64,000 nucleotides of DNA from Candidatus Omnitrophota bacterium (GCA_903908245.1 CAIVRE010000011.1:2411-66410); one strand, 5' to 3'; positions 39,580-56,856 are shown, numbered from the stretch's first letter. Translations and numbers: made by a program. The notes: a model not told the origin generated them from the sequence alone.

Positions 39580-41334
39580 ATGCCGGTCAAAAGTTTTCTT
39601 AGAAGCAAGGTCGCGATTATCGTTGTTTTGGCTTTGGCCACGGCATTGACATTTCAATGCGTCCGGCGGTTTCAGTTCCTGGGCATGGACGATCATGTTT
39701 ATGTCTGGAACAATGACGCTGTCAAGAAGGGCTTCACGCCCGAAGGCATTCGATGGGCGTTGTGCGCCGACCTGTGTTTTCCCGACAATCAGGCCGATTA
39801 TTGGCAGCCCATGACGTTCCTTTCCAGGATGCTGGATGTTCAGCTTTTCGGGATGGATCCGGGGGCGCATCATCTGGTCAATTTGTTCTTCCATATTCTT
39901 AATGCCAGCCTTTTATTCATCATCCTCTGGCTTTTTACCCGACGACAATACTTGAGCTTTCTGGCCGCATTATTATTTGCCCTGCACCCTTTGAACAGTG
40001 AGGTTTTGGGGTGGGTTACCGCGCGGAAAGACGTCTTGTCCCATTTCTTTGCTTTAACGTCCATGGCCTTATATTTTTATTGGGGGAAGATCTCCTGGAA
40101 AAAATACGCGCTGCTCGTTGTCATCTTTGCTTTTGGCCTGATGTCCAAGCCGACAGTGATCGTCTTGCCTGCGCTTTTGTTCATGATGGAATGCATGCGT
40201 TTTGACGGCCAGTTTTGGCTGGAGAATATAAAGAGCGCCTTGCGCAAGACCTGGCCGTTCTTCTTGGTCGCACTGGCGTATTTCCCAATCCCATGGATAG
40301 GCCAGCCGCATGCATTTAAGGACGCTGTTAATCCGCCGGTTCTAAAGGCGGTGTCCGCTTATGGGTTTTATCTTCAAAAGATCCTTTGGCCATCGGATTT
40401 AACATTGTACGGCCCTGTGCCGTATAGTCCGGTGAATGGGAGGGGGGTTGGCATTACTGTTTTTGTTCTTGGTTCCATCACGGCGCTGGCCATGAAATTC
40501 TATCGACGGGAGAAAATGCTGGCGGTGGGGTGGGGGGTGTTCCTGATATGTATGTTGCCGTCTGTTTTTATCGACTGGCCGGCAGATCGGTTCACCTATT
40601 TATCCAAGGCCGGGATATTGATCATGCTTGTCTGGGCTTTTGCCTTATGGCGTCCGAAGGTTCGGCTTCTCTGCCTGGCATTGGCGGGTGTTATTGCCTA
40701 TATTGTTTTATCTGTACATGCCATTATGTTTTGGCAGAATGACCAGATCCTTATGGAACGCGCGCTGAGGTTCTACCCCAATAATTACGCGGCGCATAAC
40801 CTTTTAGGCGTCTGGTATGGCCAAAGGAGCGATCTGGTCAAGGCGGAGGGCCATCTTCAGAATGCGATCGATATTTATCCCGGCCGCGATAAGCCCTGGG
40901 CTAACTTGGGCAATATCCGCATGGAACAAAAACGCTACGATGAGGCCAGGCGCTTGTTTCGGGAATCCTTGAAACGCAACCCTGATGACTATCAAACGAT
41001 CACAAATCTGGGTAATGCGTACATCAATTTAAAGGATTATAAAAGGGCTATAGAGGTTTATCAGGAAGCCCTGAAGCTGCGGCCTAATGAGCGTCAGATC
41101 CTTAATAATATGGCTATAGCGTATTTGGCGGATGGTGATCCTCAAGAGGCCTTAAAGCTTGCGGAAGGCCTTCAGGATGCCCGGTTGTATTTTTTTCTGG
41201 GAGCCAGGGCTTATGAGGCGGGCGATAAGTCGTTGGCCATTGAAATGCTGGAAAGGTCTGTTAACTTAAACCCGGAGAGTGGCGCCAGGGCTGTTGAATT
41301 GATCAGAAAGATCCAAGGGGGCGATTCCAATTGA
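39580..41334 (+). CDS. PMT/ArnT-like (GT-C) polytopic membrane domain fused to C-terminal TPR repeats
   Basis: ~11 TM N-terminal domain resembling PMT_2 family, C-terminal TPR repeats (e.g. ...YDEARRLFRESLKRNPDDYQTITNLGNAYINLKDY...). Confidence 0.65.
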   Translation: MPVKSFLRSKVAIIVVLALATALTFQCVRRFQFLGMDDHVYVWNNDAVKKGFTPEGIRWALCADLCFPDNQADYWQPMTFLSRMLDVQLFGMDPGAHHLVNLFFHILNASLLFIILWLFTRRQYLSFLAALLFALHPLNSEVLGWVTARKDVLSHFFALTSMALYFYWGKISWKKYALLVVIFAFGLMSKPTVIVLPALLFMMECMRFDGQFWLENIKSALRKTWPFFLVALAYFPIPWIGQPHAFKDAVNPPVLKAVSAYGFYLQKILWPSDLTLYGPVPYSPVNGRGVGITVFVLGSITALAMKFYRREKMLAVGWGVFLICMLPSVFIDWPADRFTYLSKAGILIMLVWAFALWRPKVRLLCLALAGVIAYIVLSVHAIMFWQNDQILMERALRFYPNNYAAHNLLGVWYGQRSDLVKAEGHLQNAIDIYPGRDKPWANLGNIRMEQKRYDEARRLFRESLKRNPDDYQTITNLGNAYINLKDYKRAIEVYQEALKLRPNERQILNNMAIAYLADGDPQEALKLAEGLQDARLYFFLGARAYEAGDKSLAIEMLERSVNLNPESGARAVELIRKIQGGDSN

Positions 41335-43677: not shown

Positions 43678-44151
43678 TTATTTTGCCTGGCTTTGACCCA
43701 TTGGCTGAGTTTGGACTGTTACTTTCCCTTGTTGCCCCTGTTGTTCCTTCATTTCCTGGTGATGTTCCCTGCGGTTTTCATCAAAATGACGCAGGCTTCT
43801 TTCGTCTTTTTCGATATTCTTGTGGATAAAGCGCATCTGTTTTTCCAGCGGATTAGCCTTTGCCTGTATTTTCTGAACCTGTTCCCTTAATGGACTTATT
43901 TGTGCCTGGAGTTTCTTGATTTGATCATTCAACGGTTTCATTTGGGCCTGAAGAGGTTGAAGTTGGTCCTGTAATTGCTTTTCTTGTATACGTAATAACT
44001 GGATCTGCTGGCGAATTTCCTTGGCTTCTCCTTGTTTCCCATATTCGTTCACCGCAGGGGTTGCTGTCTGTTGGGCACGGACTGGGGATACAGCAATAAA
44101 TATCATGGGCAGAGCAATGATCGTCGTTAAGAATGCTTTTGATACCTTCAT
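43678..44151 (-). CDS. secreted coiled-coil protein with ~11-aa Q/L/K-rich repeats
   Basis: Signal peptide; repeats LQPLQAQMKP / LNDQIKKLQAQISP / LREQVQKIQAKANP. Confidence 0.55.
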   Translation of the reverse strand: MKVSKAFLTTIIALPMIFIAVSPVRAQQTATPAVNEYGKQGEAKEIRQQIQLLRIQEKQLQDQLQPLQAQMKPLNDQIKKLQAQISPLREQVQKIQAKANPLEKQMRFIHKNIEKDERSLRHFDENRREHHQEMKEQQGQQGKVTVQTQPMGQSQAK

Positions 44152-44202
44152 ATTACCTCCATTGGTTGTCCTGACATGAGTTGTCCCTGTGTAATTGTAT
44201 TA

Positions 44203-44763
44203 TTATTTGCTAGTTCCAGTCTTAGTTAAGGGCGGCTTCTGGGTTTCGTTCTTTTGAGGAACTTCTTTGGAAGAAGATTCTTTACTTAACAGCTCTTGTG
44301 CTTTTTGAAGGTCGCTCTTGTCTTGATAACAACGAGCAAGTTCCTCTTTGGTGCTCTGCAATTCACTTTTTGCCGCGCCCGAATTCTTACTCAAAGCACT
44401 CAGGTCTTTTTGAAGGGAGTCTTTGTCTTTTTGGGTAGCTTGTAATTCATTCGTTGTTGCCTTTAATGCGTCATTTAACTGATCCTGCTTTTTTTGAAGC
44501 GTGTCCCTGTCCTCTTTAGTGGTCTGCAATCTGTCTTTTATCGCATCCATATCTTTGGTTAACTCATCTTGTTTTTTCTGAAGAGAGTCCTTGTCTTGTT
44601 TAATGCGGGCCATTTCGGTTTTTGTCCCGGACAGTTGTTCGTTTGTATCGTCCAACTCTTTTTGTTTCGCGTTCAATGCTCCGTTACAAATAAAATATAT
44701 ACTCCCCAAAAACAGAAGCACGACAACTAAAAATACGATAAAGATCATTTTCTTCTTTTCCAT
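44203..44763 (-). CDS. membrane-anchored coiled-coil protein with four ~28-aa tandem repeats
   Basis: N-terminal TM helix; repeats KDSLQKKQDELTKD.../RDTLQKKQDQLNDA.../KDSLQKDLSALSKN... Confidence 0.55.
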   Translation of the reverse strand: MEKKKMIFIVFLVVVLLFLGSIYFICNGALNAKQKELDDTNEQLSGTKTEMARIKQDKDSLQKKQDELTKDMDAIKDRLQTTKEDRDTLQKKQDQLNDALKATTNELQATQKDKDSLQKDLSALSKNSGAAKSELQSTKEELARCYQDKSDLQKAQELLSKESSSKEVPQKNETQKPPLTKTGTSK

Positions 44764-44791
44764 ATATCCTCCTGGTTTTATTAATTAAAGA

Positions 44792-45346
44792 TCATTTCTT
44801 TTTCTCGTCCGGGTGGGGCAAAATATCAGTTGTGGCTGAAAGCGGCGGAGCTTTTTCTTCTTTCATCTTTTTTTGATGGTGATGGGTCACCCGTTCTTCA
44901 GCCAGAACTTTTAACTTTGCCTGGGATTCAGTCCGTATCGCGTACAGTTTCTTTCGCTGTTCCGGCGTTAAGATCCCCCGGAGCTTGAACAAATAGTCAA
45001 TGCGATTATCGATAAGCTTCTCTTGAACTGCCAGGATCTCGTGTGCCATGGAATGAAGTTGGGCTTGATCAGGATCTTCCAATGATAATTCCTGCCTCAG
45101 GGCCGCATGTTTTGTCTTTATCTGCTCCCGCAAGGTGCTTTGATCGGCCAGAAATCCCTTGCTGAGTGCCTCTTTTTTCTGCGACTGCAGATTGGAAAAT
45201 CCAAAGCCCCCCTCTTCCAGCGTATTTATGTCATAGCCGACCGCAGCAATGTCCACTTCGACAGATTGTGCTGACGCCCGTCCTGTCAAAGGAAGGGTCA
45301 TGGCCAAAGCCAAGAAAAGAGTACTTAAATTAAGGCTTGATCGCAC
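44792..45346 (-). CDS. periplasmic Spy/CpxP-family (LTxxQ motif) protein
   Basis: Signal peptide; LTPEQRKKL LTxxQ-type motif in helical protein. Confidence 0.5.
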   Translation of the reverse strand: MRSSLNLSTLFLALAMTLPLTGRASAQSVEVDIAAVGYDINTLEEGGFGFSNLQSQKKEALSKGFLADQSTLREQIKTKHAALRQELSLEDPDQAQLHSMAHEILAVQEKLIDNRIDYLFKLRGILTPEQRKKLYAIRTESQAKLKVLAEERVTHHHQKKMKEEKAPPLSATTDILPHPDEKKK

Positions 45347-45352
45347 GGCCGT

Positions 45353-45730
45353 TCAACCTTTGCTGAGAATGACGATAATAATGCCAACCAGGATAAGCCC
45401 TGTGCCCAGGATCCGTTTCTTGGTGATGTGTTCTTTAAAGATGAAGTGTGATGCCGCCAGGATCATGATGTACTGAATGCTGTCGAGCGGGAAGGCAATG
45501 CTCAGGTCCATTTGAGCCAGGACCGTCATCCAGATCGTCATCCCGCAAGCCACAGACAACAGGCCCAGCCATGTTGTTGGCAGCCGGAGGACGGATTTGA
45601 AAAAGAGCAGGTATCCCCTGATATCCTCAGGATGAGTGTCGGGTAGGCTGTTGACGCTCTTTTTAAAGAGAACGTGCATGCAGGCGCCGAACAATTCAGT
45701 GAGAAGGATAAGACAAAAAACTTTAATCAT
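45353..45730 (-). CDS. small 4-TM EamA-like protein, ArnE/ArnF-like flippase subunit
   Basis: Start at MIKVF (8-nt overlap with upstream paralog); 4 hydrophobic helices; pairs with next gene. Confidence 0.55.
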   Translation of the reverse strand: MIKVFCLILLTELFGACMHVLFKKSVNSLPDTHPEDIRGYLLFFKSVLRLPTTWLGLLSVACGMTIWMTVLAQMDLSIAFPLDSIQYIMILAASHFIFKEHITKKRILGTGLILVGIIIVILSKG

Positions 45731-46148
45731 GATCCGATCCTGCCCGTTTGCGCGTTGATTGAAAGATGAAATAAATGCCAAGGATAATAAAACAAACTCC
45801 TACCCACCTTAACGGACTGATATTTTCATGCAGGAAGACCAGTGATAATACCATGACGATAATGTAGTTCGTGCTGCCGATCGGGTAAACAACGCTTAGG
45901 TCCGCCTTGGAAAGAGCCGTGATCCAAAAGAAGAAGTTGAGGATATAGAGGCTGATGCCGATCCATAAATAACCGCTGTGGCATATTCCTGTTATGAATA
46001 ATGCGAGATTGCTGAAGGTGATATTGTCGAGCCCCGAAGCCAGGGCGGCTTTCTTATAAAACAGTTCTCCGAGGGATTCAAGGATATCCGAAAAGAGGAC
46101 AAGGAATATGATGCCAAAAGATAGAATATTGATGTTAGGCTTTTTCAT
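45723..46148 (-). CDS. small 4-TM EamA-like protein, ArnE/ArnF-like flippase subunit
   Basis: 141 aa; EamA-type motif SKADLSVVYPIGSTNYI. Confidence 0.55.
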   Translation of the reverse strand: MKKPNINILSFGIIFLVLFSDILESLGELFYKKAALASGLDNITFSNLALFITGICHSGYLWIGISLYILNFFFWITALSKADLSVVYPIGSTNYIIVMVLSLVFLHENISPLRWVGVCFIILGIYFIFQSTRKRAGSDHD

Positions 46149-47281
46149 GATGATCCGGCTTTCACGGATTTTAGGACAGGGTCGAAATTCTCCGGTTTAA
46201 GAACAAGGCCTAAAAGCCCGAAGAAAATATTGATAACAGGATTTCTGTGTTTCGCGTAGATATATTGTGGGGTAAAAACAAAATCCAGGCGTTTCTTGGG
46301 TTCGTAATTCAAGGCTCCGGCTTCGTAACTTTGAATGCCGTTCTCGATACACCATCGGATAATAACACGGTATGTGTCAAAGTAAAGGTGGTATTGATAA
46401 GCTACGGAATAATCCAGGCCGATATATTCATCGACCATTTGGTTATGGGATACCAGACAAAGGTCAAAGGCCACTAATTTCCCGTTGAGTTTCCAAAGAA
46501 AGAATTTTGCCTCCCCTGGCATGCGGGCAGCGATCTGCTCAAAGAATGATCTGGGCAGGACTTCAAACTGGATTTCGCTTTTTTGAAGAGTGTTCAGGTA
46601 AAGCTGGTAAGCGTCATCTGCCAATTCCCCGAGGTTGTCCTGCACTTCCACTTTCAGGAGTGGCTGGTCGTCAATTTCTTTAAACTTCTTTTTAAGGCTT
46701 TTGCGGGTAGATTTGCTGAGTGAGGCGAGGTAATCATCGAAAGATCTGAAGTTTATCTTCAGTTCAACTGAAGGGAAACTGCGTATTTTATGGAAACTGT
46801 AAGTTGAAAGGTTGTCGAGGAATCCTGTATAGGCCTGATGAAAATCTTTAAAGGCTAAAATATTGATCTTTTCCTGGCGGGCCAGTGAAGAAATGGTTTC
46901 ATTCAGGGCCCGGGCGATCTCCGGCTGATCCTGCCCGATCACCCCCAGCTTTCCACCGGACAAGGGGGATCCGCAAATAAACACCTTAAGGTTGAACAAA
47001 TGCGGCAGTCTTTTTTTAATTGCGCGGGTGAGCTTTTTGAAGGGGCCCTTGATCGTTGTATCAAGAGCAACTTCGGTGACGAACGCGGGAACAAGGCATA
47101 TGATCTGGGAGCCTTTGCAGATCGTCAGGTAATAAAATTTATATTCATCGGAGAAGGATTCCTCGACAACTTTATAGAAGGCATAGTTCTCTGGAACAGA
47201 AGGAAAGATGCTCGCCCATGTCGCCGGGGCGATCTCATCAATCGATCGAAAGATCACAGTTGTTAATCCGGGTCTTTCCAT
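46145..47281 (-). CDS. FemAB/BioF2-like GNAT-fold acyl/aminoacyl-transferase
   Basis: 378 aa; overall similarity pattern to PF13480/FemAB-type acetyltransferases; 4-nt overlap with flippase-like gene. Confidence 0.4.
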   Translation of the reverse strand: MERPGLTTVIFRSIDEIAPATWASIFPSVPENYAFYKVVEESFSDEYKFYYLTICKGSQIICLVPAFVTEVALDTTIKGPFKKLTRAIKKRLPHLFNLKVFICGSPLSGGKLGVIGQDQPEIARALNETISSLARQEKINILAFKDFHQAYTGFLDNLSTYSFHKIRSFPSVELKINFRSFDDYLASLSKSTRKSLKKKFKEIDDQPLLKVEVQDNLGELADDAYQLYLNTLQKSEIQFEVLPRSFFEQIAARMPGEAKFFLWKLNGKLVAFDLCLVSHNQMVDEYIGLDYSVAYQYHLYFDTYRVIIRWCIENGIQSYEAGALNYEPKKRLDFVFTPQYIYAKHRNPVINIFFGLLGLVLKPENFDPVLKSVKAGSS

Positions 47282-47282
47282 T

Positions 47283-48686
47283 CTACATAGCCGTGGCTAT
47301 CGCTTTTTGTAGTGCTTCTTCAAAAAGGTCCACCGCCAGGTCGATCTCCTGTTCCGTGATGTAAAGCGATGGCGCGAGCGTAAAAACGTTCTTGTAGTAT
47401 CCGCCCACATCCAGGACAAGCCCGTGTTTTTTGCCGCCGGCTTTTAATTCACCGCTGAGCCCGATGTTCATGATCGCATCCGTTAACTCCCGGTTTGGCG
47501 TAAATCCGTCTTTCTGGCATATTTCGATCCGCAGGGCCAATCCCATCCCTTCGACTTCGCCGATCTGCGGATATTTCTTTTGGAGGTTTTTAAGCCGGGA
47601 CACGAAATACCGGCCTTTAAGCGGAACGGATGTCGCGAAGTCCGATCCCTCGATCAGGTCCATGACTTCCAGCCCGACCGCGGTCCCCAGCGGATTCGAA
47701 GAGAATGTTGCGTGGGTCATCCCCGGAGGAAAGACTTCCGGCGAGATCAGTTCTTCTTTTGCCCAGATCGCCGAGATCGGGTTAAGGCCATTGGTCAGGG
47801 CTTTGCCGAACACCATGATATCCGGTGTAACTCCGTAATTTTCGATCGCCCAAAGTTTGCCTGTCCGATAAAATCCCATTTGGATCTCGTCATCCACCAG
47901 CAGGATCTTGTAGCGGTCGAGGATCTTCTTCAATTCCACAAAATAATCTTTTGGCGGGATGACATAACCGCCTGTTGCCTGGATCGGTTCCACGAAGAAT
48001 GCGCCGTATTCACACTGGCGCGTTTTTGTATTAACAAGCGAATAATATTCCGACTCAAAAAGCCGTTCGAACTGCCGCAGGCATGCGAACTGGCAGGTCT
48101 CTTTCTTCTTCCCCAGCGGGCAGCGGAAACAATACGGATACGGGACAAAATTGGCCCGGTCCGCGAAATGCCCGAACTTTTCACGGTAGCGATAACTCGA
48201 GGTGATCGCGGTCGCGCCCAATGTACGGCCATGGTAGCTTCCCATGAACGCAAAGACCGGATTCTTTTTTGTATGATTACGGACGACCTTGATGGCATCT
48301 TCGATCGCAGAGGCCCCTCCGACATTAAAATGCACCCGGCCTTTGGCTTTGAATTTTTGCTCAATATCCCGGGAGATCTTGGCCGACAACAGGATCTTTT
48401 CTTTGTGCAGATACTGACAGGCCAGTTGAGGTAAAGTATTGACCTGCCTGGTAAGCGCCGTTCTCAGGCGTGGATGGTTATAGCCGAATGTCGCCGCCGA
48501 ATACCACATCTGAAGGTCAAAGAACGGGGTGCCTTTTTCATCGTAGAGATAGCTGCCTTCACAGCGGGTAAAAATATTCAGTTCTTTGGCATAATGGACC
48601 GTATCACCCCATGAGCAATACTGCGACTCCAGTTTCAATAATTCCTGATCAGAGAGCTTCTTGTCTTCTTTTTTCGTTTTATTCAT
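47283..48686 (-). CDS. class III PLP-dependent aminotransferase
   Basis: DEIQMGFYRTGKLWA and FGK PLP-lysine motifs. Confidence 0.8.
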   Translation of the reverse strand: MNKTKKEDKKLSDQELLKLESQYCSWGDTVHYAKELNIFTRCEGSYLYDEKGTPFFDLQMWYSAATFGYNHPRLRTALTRQVNTLPQLACQYLHKEKILLSAKISRDIEQKFKAKGRVHFNVGGASAIEDAIKVVRNHTKKNPVFAFMGSYHGRTLGATAITSSYRYREKFGHFADRANFVPYPYCFRCPLGKKKETCQFACLRQFERLFESEYYSLVNTKTRQCEYGAFFVEPIQATGGYVIPPKDYFVELKKILDRYKILLVDDEIQMGFYRTGKLWAIENYGVTPDIMVFGKALTNGLNPISAIWAKEELISPEVFPPGMTHATFSSNPLGTAVGLEVMDLIEGSDFATSVPLKGRYFVSRLKNLQKKYPQIGEVEGMGLALRIEICQKDGFTPNRELTDAIMNIGLSGELKAGGKKHGLVLDVGGYYKNVFTLAPSLYITEQEIDLAVDLFEEALQKAIATAM

Positions 48687-49458
48687 GTGACAATCCTTTC
48701 AAAACTTTGTACACATCTTTTAAAGTTTCATACGGAATGAATTTCTTGCCCTTATTGCGTAGATATTCGGCCAGGCTGTCTTTGGCAAAAACCATGTGCG
48801 CTGAAAGAGAGGCGCAATAATCCGAACGGCCGTCACCGATATAAACCAGCACTTTCTTAAGGCTGTCTTCATTGCACAAGAGTGATGTCTTACAGTTGGC
48901 GCAACGCAGGCATGCCTGGTTTCGATATGGGAATGAGGGAATAAGGCGGTCCCCTTCAATGCGCAGAGAGTTCGCCAGGATATTGATCCCCTGTACGTCA
49001 TGATTTTTCAATATTGTTTCGATCAGCAGATCAAAACTGTCGCTGGCGATCAGCGGGGCCACCCCCGCCTTCTTTAAAAGATTAAAAATGCGATAAAAAT
49101 CAGGGTCGATCGCGATGCCCAGGAGATATTCTCTCAGTTTCTCTTGTGTAACGCGTACCGATCGGAATTGGCCGCGCAGGCATTCTTCCGAACCGATCTC
49201 GCCGGACTGCCAGCGCTGCTCAAGATCCCGCCATTTTTGGTCGACGGCAAAATGTTCGATCAGGTCATCGATCACATCGATCTTTGATATTGTGTGGTCA
49301 AAATCAAAGAAAAAACGGCACTGGGACAGGTTCAGGCGTTGTTCTATGGCGTCCGACATGTCCCATCCGGTGGATGAAGCGCGTAACAGGGAACTTGTCT
49401 TTTCAGAGAGAGACAGATCAAGCATGTGCCGGCTCCAAGTGCGGGACAATGTGTTCAA
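48679..49458 (-). CDS. HAD-superfamily subfamily IB phosphatase (MtnX/PSP-like)
   Basis: FFDFDHT (DxDxT) motif I, GDGRSD motif. Confidence 0.65.
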   Translation of the reverse strand: MNTLSRTWSRHMLDLSLSEKTSSLLRASSTGWDMSDAIEQRLNLSQCRFFFDFDHTISKIDVIDDLIEHFAVDQKWRDLEQRWQSGEIGSEECLRGQFRSVRVTQEKLREYLLGIAIDPDFYRIFNLLKKAGVAPLIASDSFDLLIETILKNHDVQGINILANSLRIEGDRLIPSFPYRNQACLRCANCKTSLLCNEDSLKKVLVYIGDGRSDYCASLSAHMVFAKDSLAEYLRNKGKKFIPYETLKDVYKVLKGLSHE

Positions 49459-50317
49459 AAAATTGCTGCATTTTTTCTAAGACGGTGCCCCGTTCCTGGT
49501 CTGCAGTAATTATATGGTAGGAATTTTCCAGGATCACAAGTTCCTTTTGCCGGGAAGCCACATGGTCATAAATAAATTGGCCGTTCTTTACGCTGGTCAT
49601 GTCGTCATCTTTTGCCTGAATGACCTGGACCGGTGTTGTGATCCGGGGAAGCCTGGTCCTAAGATGCTTCACCAGGAGTTCCATCTGTCGCAGAAGGCTG
49701 ACCGGAAAGTAGGGGTAGCCAAAACGATCAATATCAGAAGTGTCATCGGCATTGATCTTGGTAAAATATTCGTGTGCTTTTTGACGGACGGCCGCATTCT
49801 TTATTCCGTATGGAGGGCTTTCCTGAAAAAAAACGACACGATGGAGCTGAGACCAGTACAGGGCCGGGAGAAAACAGCGGTACCACGGGCAATTCCATCC
49901 GTCATAAAACAGTGTCGGAGACAGGCAACTTACGCCGGAAATCGCCTGCGGGAATTCATCGGCTAACAAAAGCGCCAATAAAGCGCCCATCGAGAGCCCC
50001 CCGACGAAAATAGTGTCGCTGTGCTCCCTGGCTTTGAAATACGCCTGGCGGACGGTTGCGTAAAAATCCTGCCACGGGGTATTTTTTAGTACGTTTAAGG
50101 GACGGTCATGATTGGCCAGCCGCGGGCATGATATTGAGAAACCGCCGCGATTGAGCCGGCTGGCAAGGAAACGCATTTCGTTCGGTGTCCCGGTCAAGCC
50201 ATGAATAAGAATGACCGCCTTGCCGTTGCGGCCACGAATGGAGATATTGCGTCCAACGGGAATAGTGATCGATTCCTTGAGGGCTTTGGAGATCTGGAAA
50301 GAGAATTTAACGGCCAT
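49418..50317 (-). CDS. alpha/beta hydrolase (esterase/lipase-like)
   Basis: HGLTG oxyanion region, GGLSMGA GxSxG nucleophile motif. Confidence 0.7.
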   Translation of the reverse strand: MAVKFSFQISKALKESITIPVGRNISIRGRNGKAVILIHGLTGTPNEMRFLASRLNRGGFSISCPRLANHDRPLNVLKNTPWQDFYATVRQAYFKAREHSDTIFVGGLSMGALLALLLADEFPQAISGVSCLSPTLFYDGWNCPWYRCFLPALYWSQLHRVVFFQESPPYGIKNAAVRQKAHEYFTKINADDTSDIDRFGYPYFPVSLLRQMELLVKHLRTRLPRITTPVQVIQAKDDDMTSVKNGQFIYDHVASRQKELVILENSYHIITADQERGTVLEKMQQFFEHIVPHLEPAHA

Positions 50318-50375
50318 AGGTTGATCGCGAACAGAGATCGACAGATCAGGCTGCTCTTGTTTAAAGATTTATGCG

Positions 50376-50445
50376 TTAAGTATAACTTAATGAACATTAA
50401 GTTAAGATTAAGAATGTCTTTGATTTTCTTAATGTTGGGAATGGC
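50376..50445. repeat. AT-rich element with four direct TTAAG repeats and a perfect 9-bp palindrome AACTTAATG-AA-CATTAAGTT
   Basis: TTAAG at 50376, 50397, 50402, 50408; inverted copies at 50386 and ~50438; palindrome 50384-50403; between histidine-kinase stop and hydrolase start. Confidence 0.5.
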
Positions 50446-50465
50446 GATCTGTGCGCGAATGGACT

Positions 50466-51902
50466 TCAGGTCTGGTGGATCGGGATAGAAATAATGAATG
50501 TTGTGCCTTGGGCAGGTTCACTTTCGACCCGGATGGTCCCTTTGTGCGCGGTCACGATCCCTTTGGCAATACTTAGGCCAAGGCCGAATCCCGGGCTGCT
50601 TCGTGATTTCTCAGCGCGGAAGAATCTGTCAAAGACCCGTGGCAGATCTTCTTTGGCGATGCCTATTCCTGTGTCATTGACCGTGATCTCACCCAAAGGA
50701 CCCTTTTGACTGACCCTGATGGAGATATGGCCATCCTGAGGAGTGTATTTCACAGCATTATCGATAATATTGCAAAGCACCCGCCTAAGCTGGCCTTTAT
50801 CTGCGTCTATCACCACCTCATTACTTGATAACAGGGCTAATGTTATCCCTTTCTGCTCGGCCTGAGGCTGGGCATCACTGATAACCTGCCGCATTATGTC
50901 TGTCAGGTCTTCTTTCTGGAATTTTAGATTGATCTCAGCGCTGTCGAGCTGTGCCAGGGTCAGCAGGTTCTCGACCAGTGCGTTCATTTTATCGATCTCT
51001 TCGAGGTTGACAGACAGGATATCCTGGTATTCCTCCTGGGTCCGTTGTTTGTTCAGGGCGATCTCCTGTTTCCCTTTTAGGACGGTCAGCGGAGTCCTTA
51101 ATTCGTGTGAAACATCCTGGATGAGTTGTTGCTGAAGAGAAAAAGCATTGTCAAGACGGGTAAGCATGTCATTGAAGGTTTCGGCAAGCCTTCGGGTCTC
51201 ATCATTGACAGCGGGGATATTGATCCGTTGTTTTAAATTCCGGGAGGTGATCTGGCGCATGGTCCTGGTCATATTATCGACCGGTTTCAGTGTTGCCCTG
51301 GTCAGGAAGAATCCCATTATCGTAACCAGGATCATGGCTAAAGGCAGGAAGAATACCAGGACGGTCTTGATCCGGCCCAGTTTGACACATAGCGGCCTTA
51401 AAGACGCCGTGACCTGAATGAAATGGGAATTGCCGTCTTCTTTGACACGCAGGACGAGCGTTCTAAAAGGCCAAATTTCATTCTTGGACGAAGGAAATCC
51501 GGGAGTGTCAAAGAATGTTTCCCCGGGGACCGAGGCTTTCATCAGTGACATTGGGAAGAACATATTACTGGACCGGACCACTTCTTTGCCATCCTGGCGG
51601 AAGACCTGGATGAACAGCCCGTCTCCCCTGCTCCATTCCACGGCATTATGAAGAGTGCTTGTAAATTCCACGTTGGAGAAATCAACAGTCGTTTCATTCT
51701 TTTTGTTACGTATTGCGTCTTTAAGCTCTTCATCAATGACCTGCGCGATGTCCTGGGCTCTGGATTCCAGTAAATGATCGAAATCTTTGTTTAAAACGCG
51801 GCTGAAATTAACATACAGGAATATGCTCAAAATACCGGCGATGACCCCCAGGGCAAGGACATACCAGAATGTCATCCTGAAATATATCGAATTGATCAGC
51901 AT
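50466..51902 (-). CDS. sensor histidine kinase (HAMP-HisKA-HATPase)
   Basis: H-box SHELRTPL, G-box GFGLGLSIAKG; two TM segments. Confidence 0.85.
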   Translation of the reverse strand: MLINSIYFRMTFWYVLALGVIAGILSIFLYVNFSRVLNKDFDHLLESRAQDIAQVIDEELKDAIRNKKNETTVDFSNVEFTSTLHNAVEWSRGDGLFIQVFRQDGKEVVRSSNMFFPMSLMKASVPGETFFDTPGFPSSKNEIWPFRTLVLRVKEDGNSHFIQVTASLRPLCVKLGRIKTVLVFFLPLAMILVTIMGFFLTRATLKPVDNMTRTMRQITSRNLKQRINIPAVNDETRRLAETFNDMLTRLDNAFSLQQQLIQDVSHELRTPLTVLKGKQEIALNKQRTQEEYQDILSVNLEEIDKMNALVENLLTLAQLDSAEINLKFQKEDLTDIMRQVISDAQPQAEQKGITLALLSSNEVVIDADKGQLRRVLCNIIDNAVKYTPQDGHISIRVSQKGPLGEITVNDTGIGIAKEDLPRVFDRFFRAEKSRSSPGFGLGLSIAKGIVTAHKGTIRVESEPAQGTTFIISIPIHQT

Positions 51903-51903
51903 G

Positions 51904-52572
51904 TCATGTCCTTATCATGTATCCGCGGCCTCTGATGGTCTCGATGAGCTGTTTCTTGCGGCCGGAATCGATCTTTTTACGCAAAGCGTTGATATGGACA
52001 TCAATGACATTGGTGGTTGTATCAAAATTGACATCCCACACATGTTCCGAGATCGCTGTCCTCGTGACCACTTCGTTCGCGTGTTGTAGCAGGAATTCAA
52101 GAAGAAAGAATTCTTTTGTCGTCAGAATGATCTCTTCCCCTCCTCTTATGGTTTTGTGTGCGGCTACATCTATCATGAGATCGTCGGCCTGCAGAATGAG
52201 CGCTGTTTCGACACGGCTTTGTCTTAACAGGGCACGGATCCTGGCCAGCAGCTCTTTAAAGGCAAAAGGTTTTGTCAGGTAATCGTTGGCTCCGGCATCC
52301 AGCCCGGCGACTTTATTGTCCACGCTGTGTTTTGCGGTCAGCATAATGATCGGGATACTGATCTTGTCCCGCCGAAGGTTCTTGCAAAGGGTAAGGCCGT
52401 CGATCTTCGGGATCATCAGGTCCAGGATAATGACGTCATAAGATTCCGTGCCGGCCAGAAAATATCCTTTTTCGCCGTCATAAGCCACATCGACGGCATA
52501 GCCTTCTTCTTTTAAACCCTGCCGGATAAAGTCGGCAATATGTTTCTCATCTTCAATGACAAGTATCCGCAT
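51904..52572 (-). CDS. OmpR-family response regulator
   Basis: Receiver domain (DLMIP...) + winged-helix C-terminus. Confidence 0.85.
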   Translation of the reverse strand: MRILVIEDEKHIADFIRQGLKEEGYAVDVAYDGEKGYFLAGTESYDVIILDLMIPKIDGLTLCKNLRRDKISIPIIMLTAKHSVDNKVAGLDAGANDYLTKPFAFKELLARIRALLRQSRVETALILQADDLMIDVAAHKTIRGGEEIILTTKEFFLLEFLLQHANEVVTRTAISEHVWDVNFDTTTNVIDVHINALRKKIDSGRKKQLIETIRGRGYMIRT

Positions 52573-53290
52573 CCTGGCTCCAGTCCATATTATGTTTCTC
52601 CGGCAGTATCCGGACCCCTTCCACCCAGCATTCTCTTGAGGCTTTGGAAGGGGTTTTGGCGATCCTGGCCTTCAGTTTTTGAAGAGCCGCCTGTTGACCT
52701 TCGCACAGCGGGTTAAAAAGCGGTACTGCACTCATGTCGTTAACCAGGATCGTGGCCGGCGACGTAATATCCCCGGCCTTCTTCAAGGCCCGCCCCATCA
52801 GTGAGTAGAGGCTCCCCGGTTCATCGGCCAGGATCTCGGCAGAGGCAGTAAGACTTATTTTACCCCAGGCCTCCTCCACCAGTTTGCGCAGGATACCATA
52901 TACCGAGGAATAACGGATCATTATTTCTTCACCCGGGCGTAATCTGAGGGAGGAATTCACCAGGACCTGGGCAAGTTCATTGAAATTGAAACTGCGCAAT
53001 TCCTTGAGGGCATTGAATGCCAGCAGTTCAAAGGAATAGATCCCCCTGGCACGGCCAGCCGCGTCTTTGACCGCCCGATTTAAAAGGTCTTTGGCCCCTT
53101 CCCACATCAATGCTTCATCCCGGCGGATAATGTTGGCGACAAGAATGACGTGGTCTGTCCCATGTGTAACCGCTTTATATTTTTGGAAATGCGGCAGAAG
53201 GATACCCTGATAAAGAAGCGTTTCGTTCTTCGGCAGTCCCGAAAAGAGGCAGCAGGAAGAGAACTCTGTTGTCATCAGGTCGATCGGCAT
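52553..53290 (-). CDS. hypothetical protein
   Basis: 245-aa ORF with no recognisable motifs; overlaps response regulator gene by 20 nt. Confidence 0.4.
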   Translation of the reverse strand: MPIDLMTTEFSSCCLFSGLPKNETLLYQGILLPHFQKYKAVTHGTDHVILVANIIRRDEALMWEGAKDLLNRAVKDAAGRARGIYSFELLAFNALKELRSFNFNELAQVLVNSSLRLRPGEEIMIRYSSVYGILRKLVEEAWGKISLTASAEILADEPGSLYSLMGRALKKAGDITSPATILVNDMSAVPLFNPLCEGQQAALQKLKARIAKTPSKASRECWVEGVRILPEKHNMDWSQDADTCH

Positions 53291-53291
53291 A

Positions 53292-54257
53292 TTATCTCAA
53301 CGATTTGAATAATCTTATCGAGGCGTGAAGATACTTGTTCTGGAGGACCTCATGGGTCCACTTCATCCTGACGAACTCGTTGGCCTGGACCCTGGCGTCG
53401 CCCCAGCCTTGCCCTTTGAACATCGGGATGGCTTCCCAGTCAAAATTGATATAGGAAACGATCTGGACCTTCTCATCGGTGATGAATTGAAAGAATGGGG
53501 CGAACCAATGATCCCAGGAGGCTTCGCCATAACCTGTTCCGATGCCTTTAGGGGTTGATTCCGCGATCATGAACCCTTTATGATGTTCGCGCGCGAGCGC
53601 CGCAAATCCTTTCATGTAACTGTTCGGCTTTCCGAAGACGGAGACGGCGAACCAGTCCACATAATCATCCCCCGGGTACCAGTCTTCCCAGGGATGTTGC
53701 GGGAGGTTGGCATAGGAATGCCAGACAAAAGCCGCATTGGTGACCGCGGATTTCCTGAACCGGTCGACGATATAACGGAAGGCCTGGCGGTAGGCTTCGG
53801 GGGCATACCTGTTCTCCGGAAGGTCGAATTCATAACCGATACGCAGGAATACCGGCCTTTTTGCTTTTTTGATCCATGCACCGAGCCTGTCGATATTCCC
53901 GTCGTATTTGCCCTGGATGATCCCGTCAAGGCCGTCGACCATCCAGAGGCCGATCTGAAGGACGCTGTTCGGGTACTGATCGAGCAGATACTGCCCATGA
54001 TGGATCCCGCCGCCATTATTCACGGCTGTTTCCAGCCCTTCGGTATCCTGGATCGAGGTATACAGCATTGTCCCTCCGGGGACAGCTTTGATGGCGGCAA
54101 CATAATCATCGATCGAGGCTTTATCCTGTCCGATAATAAGAAGGACCTGCCCTTCCGGCGGAGCGAAGGGCACCTTGCGGGTTTCCGCTGCGCAATCGCT
54201 TGTGCCTGTGAAAGACAGTATCCCGATCAGGGAGAATAATATCGGGATCAGTTTCAT
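53292..54257 (-). CDS. secreted GH26-like glycoside hydrolase (mannanase family-like)
   Basis: Start at MKLIPILFSL (signal peptide); RIGYEFD and MIAEST motifs resemble GH26 catalytic acid/nucleophile regions. Confidence 0.5.
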   Translation of the reverse strand: MKLIPILFSLIGILSFTGTSDCAAETRKVPFAPPEGQVLLIIGQDKASIDDYVAAIKAVPGGTMLYTSIQDTEGLETAVNNGGGIHHGQYLLDQYPNSVLQIGLWMVDGLDGIIQGKYDGNIDRLGAWIKKAKRPVFLRIGYEFDLPENRYAPEAYRQAFRYIVDRFRKSAVTNAAFVWHSYANLPQHPWEDWYPGDDYVDWFAVSVFGKPNSYMKGFAALAREHHKGFMIAESTPKGIGTGYGEASWDHWFAPFFQFITDEKVQIVSYINFDWEAIPMFKGQGWGDARVQANEFVRMKWTHEVLQNKYLHASIRLFKSLR

Positions 54258-54490
54258 GTGCTTTTGATCCCGGGATTTAAAGAGTGGATATACAGGGCTT
54301 CGACCTTCTTTCTGGCCCACGGCGTCTGGCGCAGGAATGCCAGGCTGGACTTCATACTGGGGCCTTTGGCAAAGCAATTGATCCTGATCCGCCGGGACAT
54401 ATTCTCCCAGCCGTATTTTTCGACGAGAGATGTCAGGATCGCTTCGAGAGTTATTCCATGCAATGGGTCTTTATGTTTTATGTCGGGCAT
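54254..54490 (-). CDS. VF530/DUF2132-family small protein
   Basis: 78 aa with DPLHGITLE...YGWE...KSSL.FLR.TPWAR.KVE.LY pattern; stop overlaps downstream ATG (ATGA). Confidence 0.55.
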   Translation of the reverse strand: MPDIKHKDPLHGITLEAILTSLVEKYGWENMSRRIRINCFAKGPSMKSSLAFLRQTPWARKKVEALYIHSLNPGIKST

Positions 54491-54509: not shown

Positions 54510-56411
54510 TTATAGACCCGTAATTTCCTTATCTTTAAGTTGCAGTTTGAGTGTTTCGAGTTCGTTCTTCAGGCTGATGATCCGTTCTTCACGGTTCACG
54601 CTGGCTTTGAAAAAGACATCGAGTTCGTGCAGCTGTTGTTCTTTTTCTGTTTCCGTATTCTTCCGTTCGGTGATGTTCACCAGCGAAAAGAGTATATGCC
54701 GTTCATTCTTGAATTCGATCGGGCTGGCATTGATCTCCAGCCAGGCAAGTTTCTTTTCTCCGCCCGGTGAAGATATTATTAAGGGGATCTCTTCTCCCCG
54801 TATGTTCTGGCCGGTCTTAAGGACCCTGTCGGCGGTTTTGCCAAGCGTGTTCTTCGATTCATTATCCGCGCTGGAGAAAAATTTCTGTCCGCACATGTTA
54901 AGGACGACCTGGTTCAGGCGTTTGACCTCGCAGTTGCTGTCTACCAGCAAAAGGCCGACCTGTGTTGAATCAAAGATCGCTTCCAGGTTTTTTTGTTCCT
55001 CTTCCAGTTGGGCCATAAGCTTCTTGAGCTTGAGTTCCCCGGCCTGCGCGTCCTGGCTGACCTCGCGTTCACGTCTGTAGGAGAAAAAAGATCCGATAAA
55101 AAGAACGGTGAACAGGAGCGTGGTCAATATAGGGGAAAGGCGATGACGCTGGATCATTAAAGCCCATTCATTGGCGTCATAATCCATTCCGATGACCGCG
55201 ATGATCTTTCCGTTTGTCGGATCGTGGATCGCGGCCAGGCTGGAAATGAACGTTCCCCATTTGCCTGTCTCCGGGCCGACCGTGACAGCCCCACCGGAGC
55301 GGAATATTTGCCCAAGGAGCTTGGCATCTTCCCGGTACTTCTCTCCCGGGATAGCGAAGGGCTCGGAAGATGTTTTCTTTCCTGGTGGTGCCACGTCGAT
55401 CAGAAAGACATTCTTTCCGTTCTCGAGACCGAAGAGATAGACGGAAAGCACTCCCGGCTGGGTTTTAAGGATGTTGTGGAACTGTTGTTGAATGAACTTA
55501 TAATTATTATTTTCAAGATCATCCGGAGTCCCGGAAAGCGCCTTGATACGCGCAGGATCAACCATTGCGGCCGCGACCGTGACACGGTTAAGCAGGGCCT
55601 GACGTTCTTTCGTTTCTGTGTTCTGGTGGATATACTCAACAAGGATCCATCCAACCAGCAAAACAGCGATGAGACCTATCGTGAGCCATGGTTTCTTTTG
55701 GGCCTTATTTTTTACATTTGTCCCTGTTAATAGGGCAAGCCTCTCTTCGGTATATTCTCTCCAGGCCATGGCCGCCAATATGCCGGCGAGAGCCATCCGC
55801 GGGAGCTGGAGGGGGAATCCCATTACAGCGATGAACGTGTTCGTATTGATCAGTGAGGCGGGCAGAAAAGCTCCCCCTGTTGGGGCAATGAATTGCGTTG
55901 TTGCGTAACACCCCAGTAGCCAGGCGAAGGGTGTCAGGGAATGGCTTTTAGGGCTTGATTGGGCCATTGATGTCATGATGGCCCTGGCTGCCAGGAGTCC
56001 GCCGATAAAGCCGAGGATATAGCGTGAAAGAATATCAATGCCTGTCAGTCCATCCATCATCCATCCGAAGCCAAGTATAATAAACAAAAGAGGTGCATAT
56101 ATCCATTTCCCGAATATCTTTCCCCAGCGCTTTTGCGCTTCTTCCCGGGCGATCTCGATGAAACACAGGAAAGACAAGACCAGAAAAGTAACCTTGAGGG
56201 GTATCAACGGGATGTTGTCTTCAAGGCTCAGGGCGCACATGTCCAGCCATTCCGTGACCCCGTGCAGGAGTCCGAACAGGGCGATCCATTTCCAGAAGGT
56301 CTGGAAGGGGCGCAAGCGATAAATAAAGTGCGATGTTATGGCCAAAAGGAGGAATGCCAGGCCGTAAACAAAGAAAATATAATCTGTTTGAGCAGTAAAG
56401 AATTCACGCAT
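54510..56411 (-). CDS. membrane sensor protein (multi-TM + Cache/PAS-like + coiled coil) lacking kinase or other output domain
   Basis: ~8 N-terminal TM helices, second membrane segment, PAS-like region (FDSTQVGLLLVD...), C-terminal heptad coiled coil; no H-box or ATPase motifs. Confidence 0.6.
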   Translation of the reverse strand: MREFFTAQTDYIFFVYGLAFLLLAITSHFIYRLRPFQTFWKWIALFGLLHGVTEWLDMCALSLEDNIPLIPLKVTFLVLSFLCFIEIAREEAQKRWGKIFGKWIYAPLLFIILGFGWMMDGLTGIDILSRYILGFIGGLLAARAIMTSMAQSSPKSHSLTPFAWLLGCYATTQFIAPTGGAFLPASLINTNTFIAVMGFPLQLPRMALAGILAAMAWREYTEERLALLTGTNVKNKAQKKPWLTIGLIAVLLVGWILVEYIHQNTETKERQALLNRVTVAAAMVDPARIKALSGTPDDLENNNYKFIQQQFHNILKTQPGVLSVYLFGLENGKNVFLIDVAPPGKKTSSEPFAIPGEKYREDAKLLGQIFRSGGAVTVGPETGKWGTFISSLAAIHDPTNGKIIAVIGMDYDANEWALMIQRHRLSPILTTLLFTVLFIGSFFSYRREREVSQDAQAGELKLKKLMAQLEEEQKNLEAIFDSTQVGLLLVDSNCEVKRLNQVVLNMCGQKFFSSADNESKNTLGKTADRVLKTGQNIRGEEIPLIISSPGGEKKLAWLEINASPIEFKNERHILFSLVNITERKNTETEKEQQLHELDVFFKASVNREERIISLKNELETLKLQLKDKEITGL

Positions 56412-56437
56412 ATATTTTTTCCTAAAGACGCATTAGG

Positions 56438-56809
56438 TCAAGAATCCAGGATCTGCCGGACTATTTTCATTAGCTTCCGGATATCTCCGGCTTTTGAAAT
56501 ATAAGTGCGGTTAGGGAACTTGCTGCTTTGTTTCATGGCTTCCTCTTCGGAAATGGCGCCGGTCAGGAAGATCACCGGGATATAGCTTGTTTTTTCATTC
56601 TCCAGCAGATTGGCCGCGATATCCCCCCCGTCCATTCCGGGCATCATGACGTCCAGAATGATCAGGTCGGGAGCAGACTTCTTTGCCAGGTCGATGGCAT
56701 TGATCCCGTTGGTCGCTGTCAGGACCTCGAAACCTTCCCGGGAAAGGAATTTGGACATCATATCGAGGATGTTCTTTTCATTGTCAACTACGAGCACTTT
56801 TTTTGCCAT
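56438..56809 (-). CDS. single-domain response regulator receiver (CheY-like)
   Basis: D-D-K receiver pattern (LVVDNE..., ILDVMMPGMDG, ...FLTG). Confidence 0.8.
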   Translation of the reverse strand: MAKKVLVVDNEKNILDMMSKFLSREGFEVLTATNGINAIDLAKKSAPDLIILDVMMPGMDGGDIAANLLENEKTSYIPVIFLTGAISEEEAMKQSSKFPNRTYISKAGDIRKLMKIVRQILDS

Positions 56810-56856
56810 TTAGAAAACCCCCTCTTATTCTATGATCCTTGTTGTTGATAAATAAA

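Follow-up and report, generated by a model that had tools for sequence, protein, structure and literature searches.

What does a compact bacterial operon do when it couples a transferase of the Fem/MprF fold to a pair of flippase-like half-transporters, a lipase-like hydrolase, and a stress sensor? The question is raised by a 64,000-nucleotide stretch of DNA from a Candidatus Omnitrophota bacterium (GCA_903908245.1, CAIVRE010000011.1:2411-66410), which was analyzed at its full length and is referred to here as the window, with positions counted from its first letter. Omnitrophota are mostly uncultured, ultra-small bacteria, and their envelope chemistry is essentially unknown. A first-pass annotation had pointed to positions 43678 to 50445 as a low-GC block that reproduces the Arn pathway and may be a horizontally acquired module for surface modification with an amino group. 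The gene content it listed (an EamA pair, a FemAB-like protein, a class-III aminotransferase, a HAD phosphatase, and a hydrolase) was confirmed with Pfam and NCBIfam models, and the general idea of a module that places an amino group on the surface or on a lipid fits the evidence, while the mimicry of Arn and the horizontal origin are not supported. The reading that we favor, with a probability of roughly 45%, is that of a split MprF-like system under stress control, which would add an amino group to a membrane lipid.

A conserved eight-gene cassette in Omnitrophota

We delimited the functional unit by the gene sets that recur in relatives. It consists of eight genes on the minus strand (52572..45353), in the order OmpR-type response regulator (RR), sensor histidine kinase (HK), alpha/beta hydrolase (ABH), HAD-IB phosphatase (HAD), class-III pyridoxal phosphate (PLP) enzyme (AT3), a transferase with two tandem GNAT (Gcn5-related N-acetyltransferase) domains of the Fem/MprF fold (FEM), and two EamA half-transporters (EamA_a and EamA_b). 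The interval 43678-50445 is not this unit, having cut off RR and HK and included three small, nonconserved genes. Start/stop overlaps of 4 to 8 nt link ABH, HAD, and AT3 as well as FEM, EamA_a, and EamA_b; the start of AT3 overlaps the stop of HAD by 8 nt, the start of EamA_a overlaps the stop of FEM by 4 nt, and the two EamA genes overlap each other. The sole sizeable gap in the cassette is the 148-nt intergenic region between HK and ABH (50318..50465). Consensus scans for promoters and terminators gave nothing above the expectation from shuffled sequence.

Homologs of FEM retrieved from a word index (132 proteins) come nearly all from Omnitrophota metagenome-assembled genomes, with identities from 77% down to ∼30%, and a protein 100% identical to FEM lies in the same gene order on a 327.7-kb metagenomic contig. 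The genome scan for FEM relatives was run with a 12-sequence alignment. We gathered 30 loci (given here as L numbers), searched them with the proteins of the window, and clustered all of their open reading frames (ORFs); the counts given here refer to the 22 nonredundant FEM loci. In L030 (GCA_015232235.1, 74% identity), all eight genes are found in the same order and orientation between entirely different flanks, and L002 (GCA_015233115.1, 69% identity) retains ABH-HAD-AT3-FEM, with the EamA pair 1 kb off. Across the 22 loci, the neighbors of FEM are the EamA pair (15 loci), ABH (13), AT3 (9 to 10), HAD (9, always accompanied by AT3), HK (8 to 9), and RR (5, namely, L008, L019, L026, L027, and L030). 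Three loci (L015, L020, and L024) have the operon in a minimal form, FEM-EamA-EamA-HK-ABH. The variable neighbors are overwhelmingly genes for envelope lipids, including RND (resistance-nodulation-division) pumps with OEP, PAP2, PIG-L, DegT, and PMT_2 with polysaccharide deacetylase, and further a monogalactosyldiacylglycerol synthase, an LpxL-like acyltransferase, a family 2 glycosyltransferase (GT2), and FabF with acyl carrier protein (ACP). The cassette is typical of the Omnitrophota lineage and had previously been uncharacterized.

Contigs with the cassette are found in bins labeled Actinomycetota, Deltaproteobacteria, Planctomycetia, and Chthoniobacteraceae (L014, L016, L018, L019, and L021), which reflects either misbinning or a distribution wider than Omnitrophota. 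One of them, L021 (Verrucomicrobiota label, 34% identity), combines a ketoacyl-ACP synthase (KAS) with AT3, ABH, HAD, FEM, EamA, and a gene for an arginase-like protein. In L017 (7103-12547, Omnitrophota), ABH-HK-EamA is enclosed by two FEM paralogs, and genes for a DegT aminotransferase and an MFS_3 transporter lie next to them. Single loci carry a PAP2 lipid phosphatase between HK and ABH (L019, 8130-8978) or a PIG-L deacetylase between RR and ABH (L027, 7565-8938), and genes for B12-binding radical-SAM proteins lie near FEM in L004 and L016.

FEM, a probable tRNA-dependent amino-acid transferase

FEM (46145..47281, minus strand) matches PF04339 (FemAB_like; E = 6e-21, 75 bits) and PF13480 (Acetyltransf_6) only; it has no match to PF02388 (FemAB) or to PF09924/DUF2156, and with the NCBIfam FemX model it reaches 22.9 bits, the cutoff being 500. 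The PF04339/COG3146 family is large, with 2,449 representative clusters at an E value of ≤1e-3, and includes plant homologs (PMC3223725). An AlphaFold (AF2) model of FEM, built on a 92-sequence alignment, reached a mean predicted local distance difference test score (pLDDT) of 91.3 and a predicted template modeling score (pTM) of 0.88. When this model was compared with the PDB using Foldseek, the top match was FemX of Weissella viridescens (E = 1e-13), followed by the aminoacyl-tRNA-dependent peptide synthases Sbb17 and Sba18, FemX and FemA of Staphylococcus aureus, and the C-terminal synthase domains of MprF for lysyl-phosphatidylglycerol (Lys-PG) and alanyl-phosphatidylglycerol (Ala-PG). The 12 best matches in the PDB are all aminoacyl-tRNA transferases (E = 1e-13 to 1e-9), and the tandem GNAT fold is recovered with a Foldseek probability of 1.00 for FemX, Sbb17/Sba18, FemA, and the MprF C-terminal domains (TM-scores of 0.5 to 0.7).

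Aminoacyl-tRNA transferases of the GNAT fold share a positively charged tRNA-binding helix, absent from other GNATs, and a strictly conserved catalytic lysine (K305 in FemX, K840 in A-PGS, and K813 in L-PGS) (PMC9351520). Between its two GNAT halves, FEM has a helix (residues 190-204) with a mean net charge of +5.3 (range, +3 to +8) among the 92 homologs, in which positions R193, K197, R198, K199, and K201 are basic in 93 to 100% of the sequences. The second GNAT half contains K329, which is invariant (92/92) within the motif Y-E/D-P-K-K/R-R-L and which may be the equivalent of FemX K305. The CoA-pyrophosphate motif Q/RxxGxG/A is not conserved in the family, where 10 of the 92 sequences have one, at scattered positions. 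Given the fold, the basic helix, and the invariant lysine, FEM is probably a tRNA-dependent amino-acid transferase.

A pair of EamA half-transporters coupled to the transferase

The two proteins encoded downstream of FEM are small members of PF00892, EamA_a (45723..46148, minus strand; 141 amino acids) and EamA_b (45353..45730, minus strand; 125 amino acids from the ATG at 45730, in an ORF that reaches 45781 from a TTG). For both, ArnE and ArnF are the best NCBIfam matches (E = 1e-12 to 4e-10), with 40.1 bits to ArnF and 39.0 bits to ArnE in EamA_a (cutoffs, 99 and 92) and 47.8 bits to ArnE and 41.9 bits to ArnF in EamA_b (cutoffs, 92 and 99). The ArnE/ArnF arrangement seen in the first reading of this DNA thus stands as regards the overlapping gene pair and its best matches, but the scores stay below the equivalog cutoffs. 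Weak matches to MdtI and MdtJ were also found. By simple hydropathy, each half contains about four hydrophobic segments, and the distribution of lysine and arginine is opposite between them, these residues being concentrated at the termini of EamA_a and in the loops of EamA_b. This suggests an antiparallel pair in which EamA_a has both termini in the cytoplasm, although the topology call is crude.

The coupling between transferase and transporter extends to gene fusion: 17 of the 120 listed homologs are single-chain FEM-EamA proteins of ∼510 to 530 amino acids, with FEM at the N terminus and the EamA half at the C terminus. The half that is fused corresponds to EamA_a, and the predicted cytoplasmic N terminus of EamA_a agrees with what this fusion to FEM requires.

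Do these transporters belong to an Arn-like route? In such a scheme, FEM would (amino)acylate a polyprenyl-phosphate-linked aminosugar on the cytoplasmic side, the ArnE/F-like pair would flip the product, and a GT-C glycosyltransferase (PMT_2) would transfer it to a periplasmic acceptor such as lipid A. Beyond the best family matches of both EamA halves, several genes of the relatives would suit it: a DegT (ArnB-family) aminotransferase stands divergently beside FEM in 4 of the 22 loci, PMT_2 and polysaccharide deacetylase domains (ArnT- and ArnD-like) adjoin the cassette in L003, where they are fused, and in L029, and a PIG-L deacetylase and a GT2 are found in L027 and L029, respectively. In the window itself, a PMT_2/TPR protein is encoded 4 kb away (39580-41334). 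This protein, however, is encoded on the opposite strand, with RsmH and an Fe-alcohol dehydrogenase in between, has a PMT_2 score of 27.6 bits (cutoff, 26.1), and lacks an NCBIfam match to ArnT. Neither in nor beside the window's cassette is there a DegT, ArnA, GT2, or deacetylase gene; the sugar-related neighbors each occur in 2 to 4 of 22 to 24 loci, the hydrolase and the kinase being far more constant; and the polysaccharide deacetylases are closer to PgaB/IcaB than to ArnD. We regard this route as unlikely.

The stronger claim that the block reproduces the logic of the Arn pathway is not supported: its aminotransferase is of class III and not DegT, and ArnA, ArnC, and ArnD are missing from it, with none among the ORFs of at least 90 amino acids between 24.7 and 60.4 kb (Pfam, E ≤ 1e-4). 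Nor did the GT2 and the epimerase that had been placed in a nearby radical-SAM island find a Pfam match among the ORFs at 24.7 to 43.7 kb, where only a short-chain dehydrogenase/reductase (SDR) and a split transketolase were detected. The DegT genes of relatives (4/22 loci) and the PMT_2 and polysaccharide deacetylase genes (2 loci) partly rescue the Arn idea, in that they keep a carrier-lipid aminosugar among the candidate acceptors.

A lipase-like hydrolase and a metal- or envelope-type two-component system

ABH (49418..50317, minus strand; Hydrolase_4, E = 1.6e-19) is a hydrolase of the monoacylglycerol lipase/Est30 type; among solved structures, it is nearest to bacterial monoacylglycerol lipases, LipS, and Est30 (E values of about 1e-30). 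It has no N-terminal signal or transmembrane (TM) segment and is predicted to be cytoplasmic.

The first two genes of the cassette encode a two-component system. RR (51904..52572, minus strand) consists of Response_reg and Trans_reg_C domains, and HK (50466..51902, minus strand) was assigned by Pfam HAMP, HisKA, and HATPase domains, preceded by a periplasmic loop between two TM segments (residues 6-22 and 181-197). Their best NCBIfam matches fall just short of the cutoffs of the heavy-metal families: RR scores 268 bits against 279 for the heavy-metal response regulator TIGR01387, and HK 291.5 bits against 292.55 for the heavy-metal sensor kinase TIGR01386 (CztS/SilS/CopS). The models for CpxA, BaeS, and PmrA score lower than the heavy-metal models on these two proteins.

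Soluble enzymes and the nature of the substrate

AT3 (47283..48686, minus strand; PF00202, E = 9e-79) is a transaminase or racemase that stays below every NCBIfam equivalog cutoff, with archaeal class-III alanine/serine racemase, a broad-specificity racemase, and proteins like γ-aminobutyrate aminotransferase as its nearest solved structures. HAD (48679..49458, minus strand; 248 amino acids from the start at 49425 chosen by the gene caller) is an MtnX/PHOSPHO-like phosphatase matched by PF06888 (Put_Phosphatase), PF12710, and TIGR01489, the MtnX-like HAD-IB subfamily, at 97 bits and thus above the cutoff of 81.6. Its relatives in the PDB are MtnX and phosphoserine phosphatases.

Two pathway assignments were tried for these enzymes and rejected. 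For biotin synthesis (BioF2-, BioA-, and BioH-like proteins), the BioA model gave 205 bits (cutoff, 405), less than several other class-III models, and neither BioD nor BioB is present. For a phosphonate pathway analogous to PhnW/PhnX, the scores were 244 against 525 bits for a PbfA-like protein and 34 against 288 bits for phn_DUF6, and no phosphoenolpyruvate mutase or decarboxylase is present.

Near FEM, 6 to 8 of the 22 loci encode a divergent arginase-fold protein of ∼310 amino acids, which follows AT3 in most relatives. It scores only 23 to 31 bits with PF00491 and has no NCBIfam match; examples are L003 (9917-10852) and L008 (6251-7192), and it is also found in L012, L013, L014, L021, L026, and L027. 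The juxtaposition of an arginase-like protein and an enzyme resembling ornithine aminotransferase recalls the RocF/RocD pair. Neither the window nor its two closest relatives have the gene, and a search of the window for the arginase-like, KAS, ACP, DUF347, and PMT_2-deacetylase genes of the relatives found none of them.

These soluble enzymes raise the possibility that the substrate is itself soluble, such that AT3, HAD, and the arginase-fold enzyme would build a soluble amine, for example an amino alcohol or a polyamine-like compound, FEM would (amino)acylate it, and the EamA pair would export it in the manner of small multidrug resistance (SMR) or drug/metabolite (DMT) transporters. Among the best fold matches of FEM are Sbb17 and Sba18, whose substrate in streptothricin-type pathways is a soluble amine, and GNATs of COG3146 and PF13480 are present in the argolaphos phosphonopeptide cluster (PMC8976061). 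The weak matches of the EamA halves to the spermidine exporter MdtI/MdtJ and, in a single locus, a GH3-family amino-acid conjugating enzyme encoded after ABH at the end of the cassette (L015, 14290-15951) point in the same direction. On the other side, the minimal set of FEM, EamA pair, HK, and ABH lacks any enzyme that would build the scaffold, ABH is lipase-like, and the FEM-EamA fusion, the metal- or envelope-type sensor, and the envelope and lipid genes nearby point to a membrane substrate. A soluble product seems to us quite unlikely.

Alternatively, FEM might depend on acyl-ACP. AT3, HAD, and the arginase-like protein would then provide an amine or amino acid for FEM to N-acylate, ABH would add or remove a second acyl chain, and the EamA pair would move a phosphorus-free aminolipid, similar to ornithine lipid, outward. 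A FabF-type KAS, usually with ACP, stands beside the cassette in five loci (L003, L004, L021, L022, and L029), homologs of FEM are annotated by JGI as "predicted N-acyltransferase," the arginase-like and ornithine-aminotransferase-like enzymes could together yield ornithine, and ABH is lipase-like. However, the KAS passes the cutoff of the housekeeping FabF equivalog, so that its adjacency may be incidental, and no KAS, ACP, or arginase-like gene is found in the window or its nearest relatives. The best fold matches of FEM use aminoacyl-tRNA, its conserved basic helix of the tRNA-binder type would have no role with acyl-ACP, and the family lacks a conserved CoA- or pantetheine-binding motif. 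We consider this chemistry improbable.

A split MprF-like system as the favored model

In the favored model of a split MprF-like system, a CusS/CopS-like HK would sense a periplasmic cation or envelope stress and induce the operon via the OmpR-type RR. On the cytoplasmic side of the inner membrane, FEM would then load the amino acid of an aminoacyl-tRNA onto an acceptor anchored in the membrane, for which the head group of a glycerolipid or glycolipid and an amine linked to a carrier lipid are candidates. The EamA pair, whose association with and fusion to FEM are observed, would act as a heterodimer and flip the product. ABH may strip an ester-linked group or an acyl chain and so keep the modified lipid balanced, as AcvB and PA0919 do for MprF, while AT3 and HAD, in many relatives together with the arginase-fold protein, might provide or modify the amine or the amino-acid group, conceivably from a keto-phosphate via an amino-phosphate to a dephosphorylated product.

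A number of observations weigh against this model. Four-TM pairs of the EamA/SMR type also export small solutes, and both EamA halves score less than half of the ArnE/ArnF cutoffs. The aminoacyl-PG hydrolases known so far act in the periplasm, as opposed to the cytoplasmic, lipase-like ABH. It is not obvious where an MprF-type scheme would use AT3, HAD, and the arginase-like protein, which are soluble enzymes acting on small molecules. For FEM, comparison with the PDB by sequence and by a 92-sequence profile gave chance-level matches only, and the fold matches are modest (TM-scores of 0.5 to 0.6, identities of 10 to 14%), with tandem GNATs that use acetyl-CoA appearing among them from rank 13 on. 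The residue preceding K329 is a proline, as opposed to an aromatic residue in Fem and Ate1 enzymes. Finally, our literature search found no functional characterization of PF04339/COG3146 (DUF482) or PF13480, and one function prediction for COG3146 was tested and failed (PMC3223725).

As a whole, the proposed system would resemble MprF plus a hydrolase under control of the GraRS/PmrAB type, assembled from different protein families. The likeness to MprF lies in the tandem-GNAT synthase domain with its basic helix and a conserved lysine that may be equivalent (fold match, E = 1e-10 to 1e-9), in the physical coupling of synthase and translocator, by overlapping genes here and by fusion in homologs, and in the proposed stress-responsive control. 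The lpiA-acvB operon pairs a synthase/flippase with an alpha/beta hydrolase (PMC13197417), and the cassette likewise encodes such a hydrolase in the operon of its putative synthase, as do LpiA/AcvB and PA0920/PA0919. The differences are substantial: the cassette has no match to PF09924/DUF2156 or to the MprF TM domain, its translocator is a pair of four-TM EamA halves in place of a 14-TM flippase domain, the domain order is reversed, with the synthase N-terminal and the transporter C-terminal in the fusions, PLP and HAD enzymes are added, and ABH is cytoplasmic and resembles monoacylglycerol lipase, whereas hydrolases of the AcvB/VirJ type are periplasmic.

With the Arn system and its PmrAB regulators, the cassette shares two adjacent, overlapping genes for small EamA/SMR-like proteins (∼110 to 140 amino acids) with ArnE and ArnF as best family matches, an OmpR-type two-component system of its own, of the metal-sensing type, and the presumed purpose of placing an amine on the cell surface. 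It differs in the scores of the halves (39 to 48 bits against cutoffs of 92 to 99), in the lack of ArnA, ArnB (DegT), ArnC (GT2), and ArnD among the PmrHFIJKLM proteins, its aminotransferase being of class III, and in a GT-C candidate that is distant, on the opposite strand, and weakly PMT_2-like. The best structural matches of FEM are FemXAB and Sbb17/Sba18 (E = 1e-13 to 1e-10), which share the tandem GNAT domains and the basic helix and have a conserved lysine to which K329 may correspond; unlike FemXAB, FEM belongs to PF04339 and not PF02388, stands outside a peptidoglycan synthesis context, is coupled to a flippase-like pair, and lacks the coiled-coil arm of FemA. The fungal ErdS/ErdH system, which is eukaryotic, has DUF2156 fused to an aminoacyl-tRNA synthetase, uses a sterol acceptor, and is not known to include a flippase, offers a further parallel; it pairs a tRNA-dependent lipid (ergosteryl-amino-acid) synthase with a dedicated hydrolase (PMC8913301). 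By its sequence relationships, the cassette is a member of neither MprF/AcvB nor PmrAB-Arn, being alike to them in apparent purpose and layout.

More broadly, and as a tentative proposal that we hold to be rather doubtful in its entirety, Omnitrophota and some relatives of the PVC (Planctomycetes-Verrucomicrobia-Chlamydiae) type may possess a system for aminoacyl lipids that has not been described before and whose evolution was independent of MprF. It would combine a Fem-fold, tRNA-dependent PF04339 transferase, coupled or fused to an antiparallel, ArnE/F-like EamA heterodimer, with a cytoplasmic lipase-like esterase and a two-component system for metal or envelope stress, the acceptor or the amino-acid moiety being custom-made by class-III PLP, HAD-IB, and arginase-fold enzymes. 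The recurrent operon and the gene fusion link one PF04339 subfamily with flippase-like half-transporters, a stress sensor, and a hydrolase of the lipase type, and yield a concrete hypothesis, namely, that lipids are aminoacylated in a tRNA-dependent reaction and then flipped. If it is true, the PF04339/COG3146 family would gain its first assigned function, ArnE/F-like half-transporters would gain a second class of substrate, and surface-charge remodeling of the MprF/Arn type would have arisen once more from other parts; if it fails, the region is simply an uncharacterized metabolic operon.

Base composition and the question of horizontal transfer

The low GC content that had drawn attention to this locus is real in direction and was overstated in size. 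No other segment of this length in the 64 kb has as low a GC content as the interval 43678-50445, at 46.8%, compared with a mean of 52.3% for the whole window, 53.8% for the left 43.7 kb, and 50.1% for the right 13.6 kb. The flanks thus have 50 to 54% GC and not the 57 to 65% once reported, and the two 60-nt examples quoted in support (48661-48720 and 26101-26160) are extreme spots of 28% and 68%, respectively. Since GC is ∼49% throughout the right third of the window (39 to 64 kb), the block has no sharp right-hand boundary. The dip is deepest at 43.6 to 47.3 kb (44.5%), while the segment from 47.3 to 50.4 kb, at 49.3%, is like the right flank.

Could this composition mark a recent genomic island? 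Such an origin would be compatible with any of the functional readings, and on this view the low GC would mark foreign DNA. The GC content at third codon positions (GC3) of the block genes is 0.534, compared with 0.636 for the genes to the left (P = 3e-4) and 0.578 for those to the right (P = 0.11). Broken down by gene, GC3 is 0.43 to 0.51 in the three small genes at 43678-45346 and 0.52 to 0.63 in the six enzyme and transporter genes, which at 0.572 overall do not differ from the right flank (P = 0.66). We also computed, for each protein, the GC content expected from its amino-acid sequence and the codon usage of the remaining window. The expectation for the block was 49.4%, against 47.2% observed and 53.2% in the reference genes, so that ∼63% of the dip reflects composition at the protein level, which is due to K/Q/E-rich coiled-coil proteins and I/L/F-rich membrane proteins.

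Synonymous codon usage, expressed as a length-corrected distance (z), is ordinary in the six core genes (-0.5 to 1.8). Within the block, only the genes at 43678-44151 (z = 3.0) and 44203-44763 (z = 4.1) are mildly atypical, and several genes elsewhere in the window deviate far more, with z values of up to 13.9. A tRNA scan of the window found none, no integrase or transposase domain was detected in any ORF scanned with Pfam (nearly all ORFs of the window), the repeat search found no repeats bounding the block, and a tandem-repeat finder was negative. In favor of an island, besides the GC minimum and the two mildly atypical coiled-coil genes, are the flanks of the cassette, which differ among close relatives, and the homologous cassettes in bins labeled Verrucomicrobiota, Planctomycetia, Actinomycetota, and Deltaproteobacteria. 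Against it, the family is overwhelmingly Omnitrophota, with identities graded from 77% down to 40%, and the low-GC extreme sits in the three nonconserved genes for small secreted proteins, not in the enzymes. Taken with the share of the dip explained by amino-acid composition and the ordinary codon usage and flank-like GC3 of the core genes, these observations leave a recent island highly improbable. Horizontal acquisition is not supported for this lineage-typical cassette, and the compositional anomaly that prompted the finding is minor: the genes for the CpxP-like and coiled-coil proteins are local additions that produce most of the dip.

Genes around the cassette and elsewhere in the window

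From 54377 down to 41458, all genes lie tightly packed on the minus strand, in the order GH26-like protein, a 245-amino-acid protein, the cassette with its internal gap, a CpxP/ZraP-like protein, two coiled-coil proteins, RsmH, and Fe-alcohol dehydrogenase. The three small genes after the cassette make up the 1.7 kb (43678-45346) that the first-pass annotation had left undescribed. The first of them (44792..45346, minus strand) encodes a secreted periplasmic protein of the CpxP/ZraP/Spy (LTXXQ) family with an N-terminal hydrophobic segment, matched by PF13801 at 29.4 bits (cutoff, 29.2) and by PF07813 at 23.9 bits, with weak NCBIfam matches to CpxP and ZraP. It is not at the corresponding position in L002 or L030 and is local to the genome of the window.

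The second (44203..44763, minus strand) encodes an N-terminally anchored coiled-coil protein with only weak matches of the coiled-coil type and has the lowest GC content of any gene in the window (39.8%; GC3, 0.433). It contains four degenerate DNA repeats with a period of 84 to 105 nt (family D1), encoding the peptide motif DKDSLQKKQDEL, and was not found adjoining the cassette in relatives. The third (43678..44151, minus strand; GC3, 0.437) encodes a secreted, Q/K/E-rich coiled-coil protein with a signal-like N terminus and coiled-coil matches only; together, the two coiled-coil genes account for the deepest part of the GC dip.

Upstream of the cassette, the 245-amino-acid protein (52553-53290), which has no Pfam or NCBIfam match, is encoded by a gene whose stop overlaps the start of RR by 20 nt, and is preceded by a weakly GH26-like secreted protein (53292-54377). 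Both genes are co-oriented with the cassette and absent from relatives. Farther out, a second signaling cluster (54510-59296) includes a 633-amino-acid multi-TM protein without family match, single-domain response regulators at 56438-56809 and ∼56863-57228 (the latter identified by tblastn), and a PAS histidine kinase (57227-59296).

On the other side of the cassette, the window contains a dense series of radical-SAM genes, many of them also encoding B12-binding domains, at 9574-11040, 22756-23865, 24727-25770, 25774-27297, 31499-33112, 33109-34581, 34594-35634 (SPASM), and 37916-39379. Interleaved with them are the split transketolase (27287-29075), the SDR (29093-29878), and ORFs without family match at 29826-30923, 30946-31311, and 35644-37938 (764 amino acids). 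The most atypical codon usage of the window (z = 13.9) belongs to a 1,503-amino-acid ORF at 2255-6766, whose sole Pfam match is to starch synthase (Glyco_transf_5, 49 bits), and the gene for a thiamine pyrophosphate enzyme at 7342-9072 likewise departs strongly from the norm (z = 11.5). At 19317-21608, a 763-amino-acid protein consists of a patatin-like phospholipase fused to a cyclic-nucleotide-binding domain.

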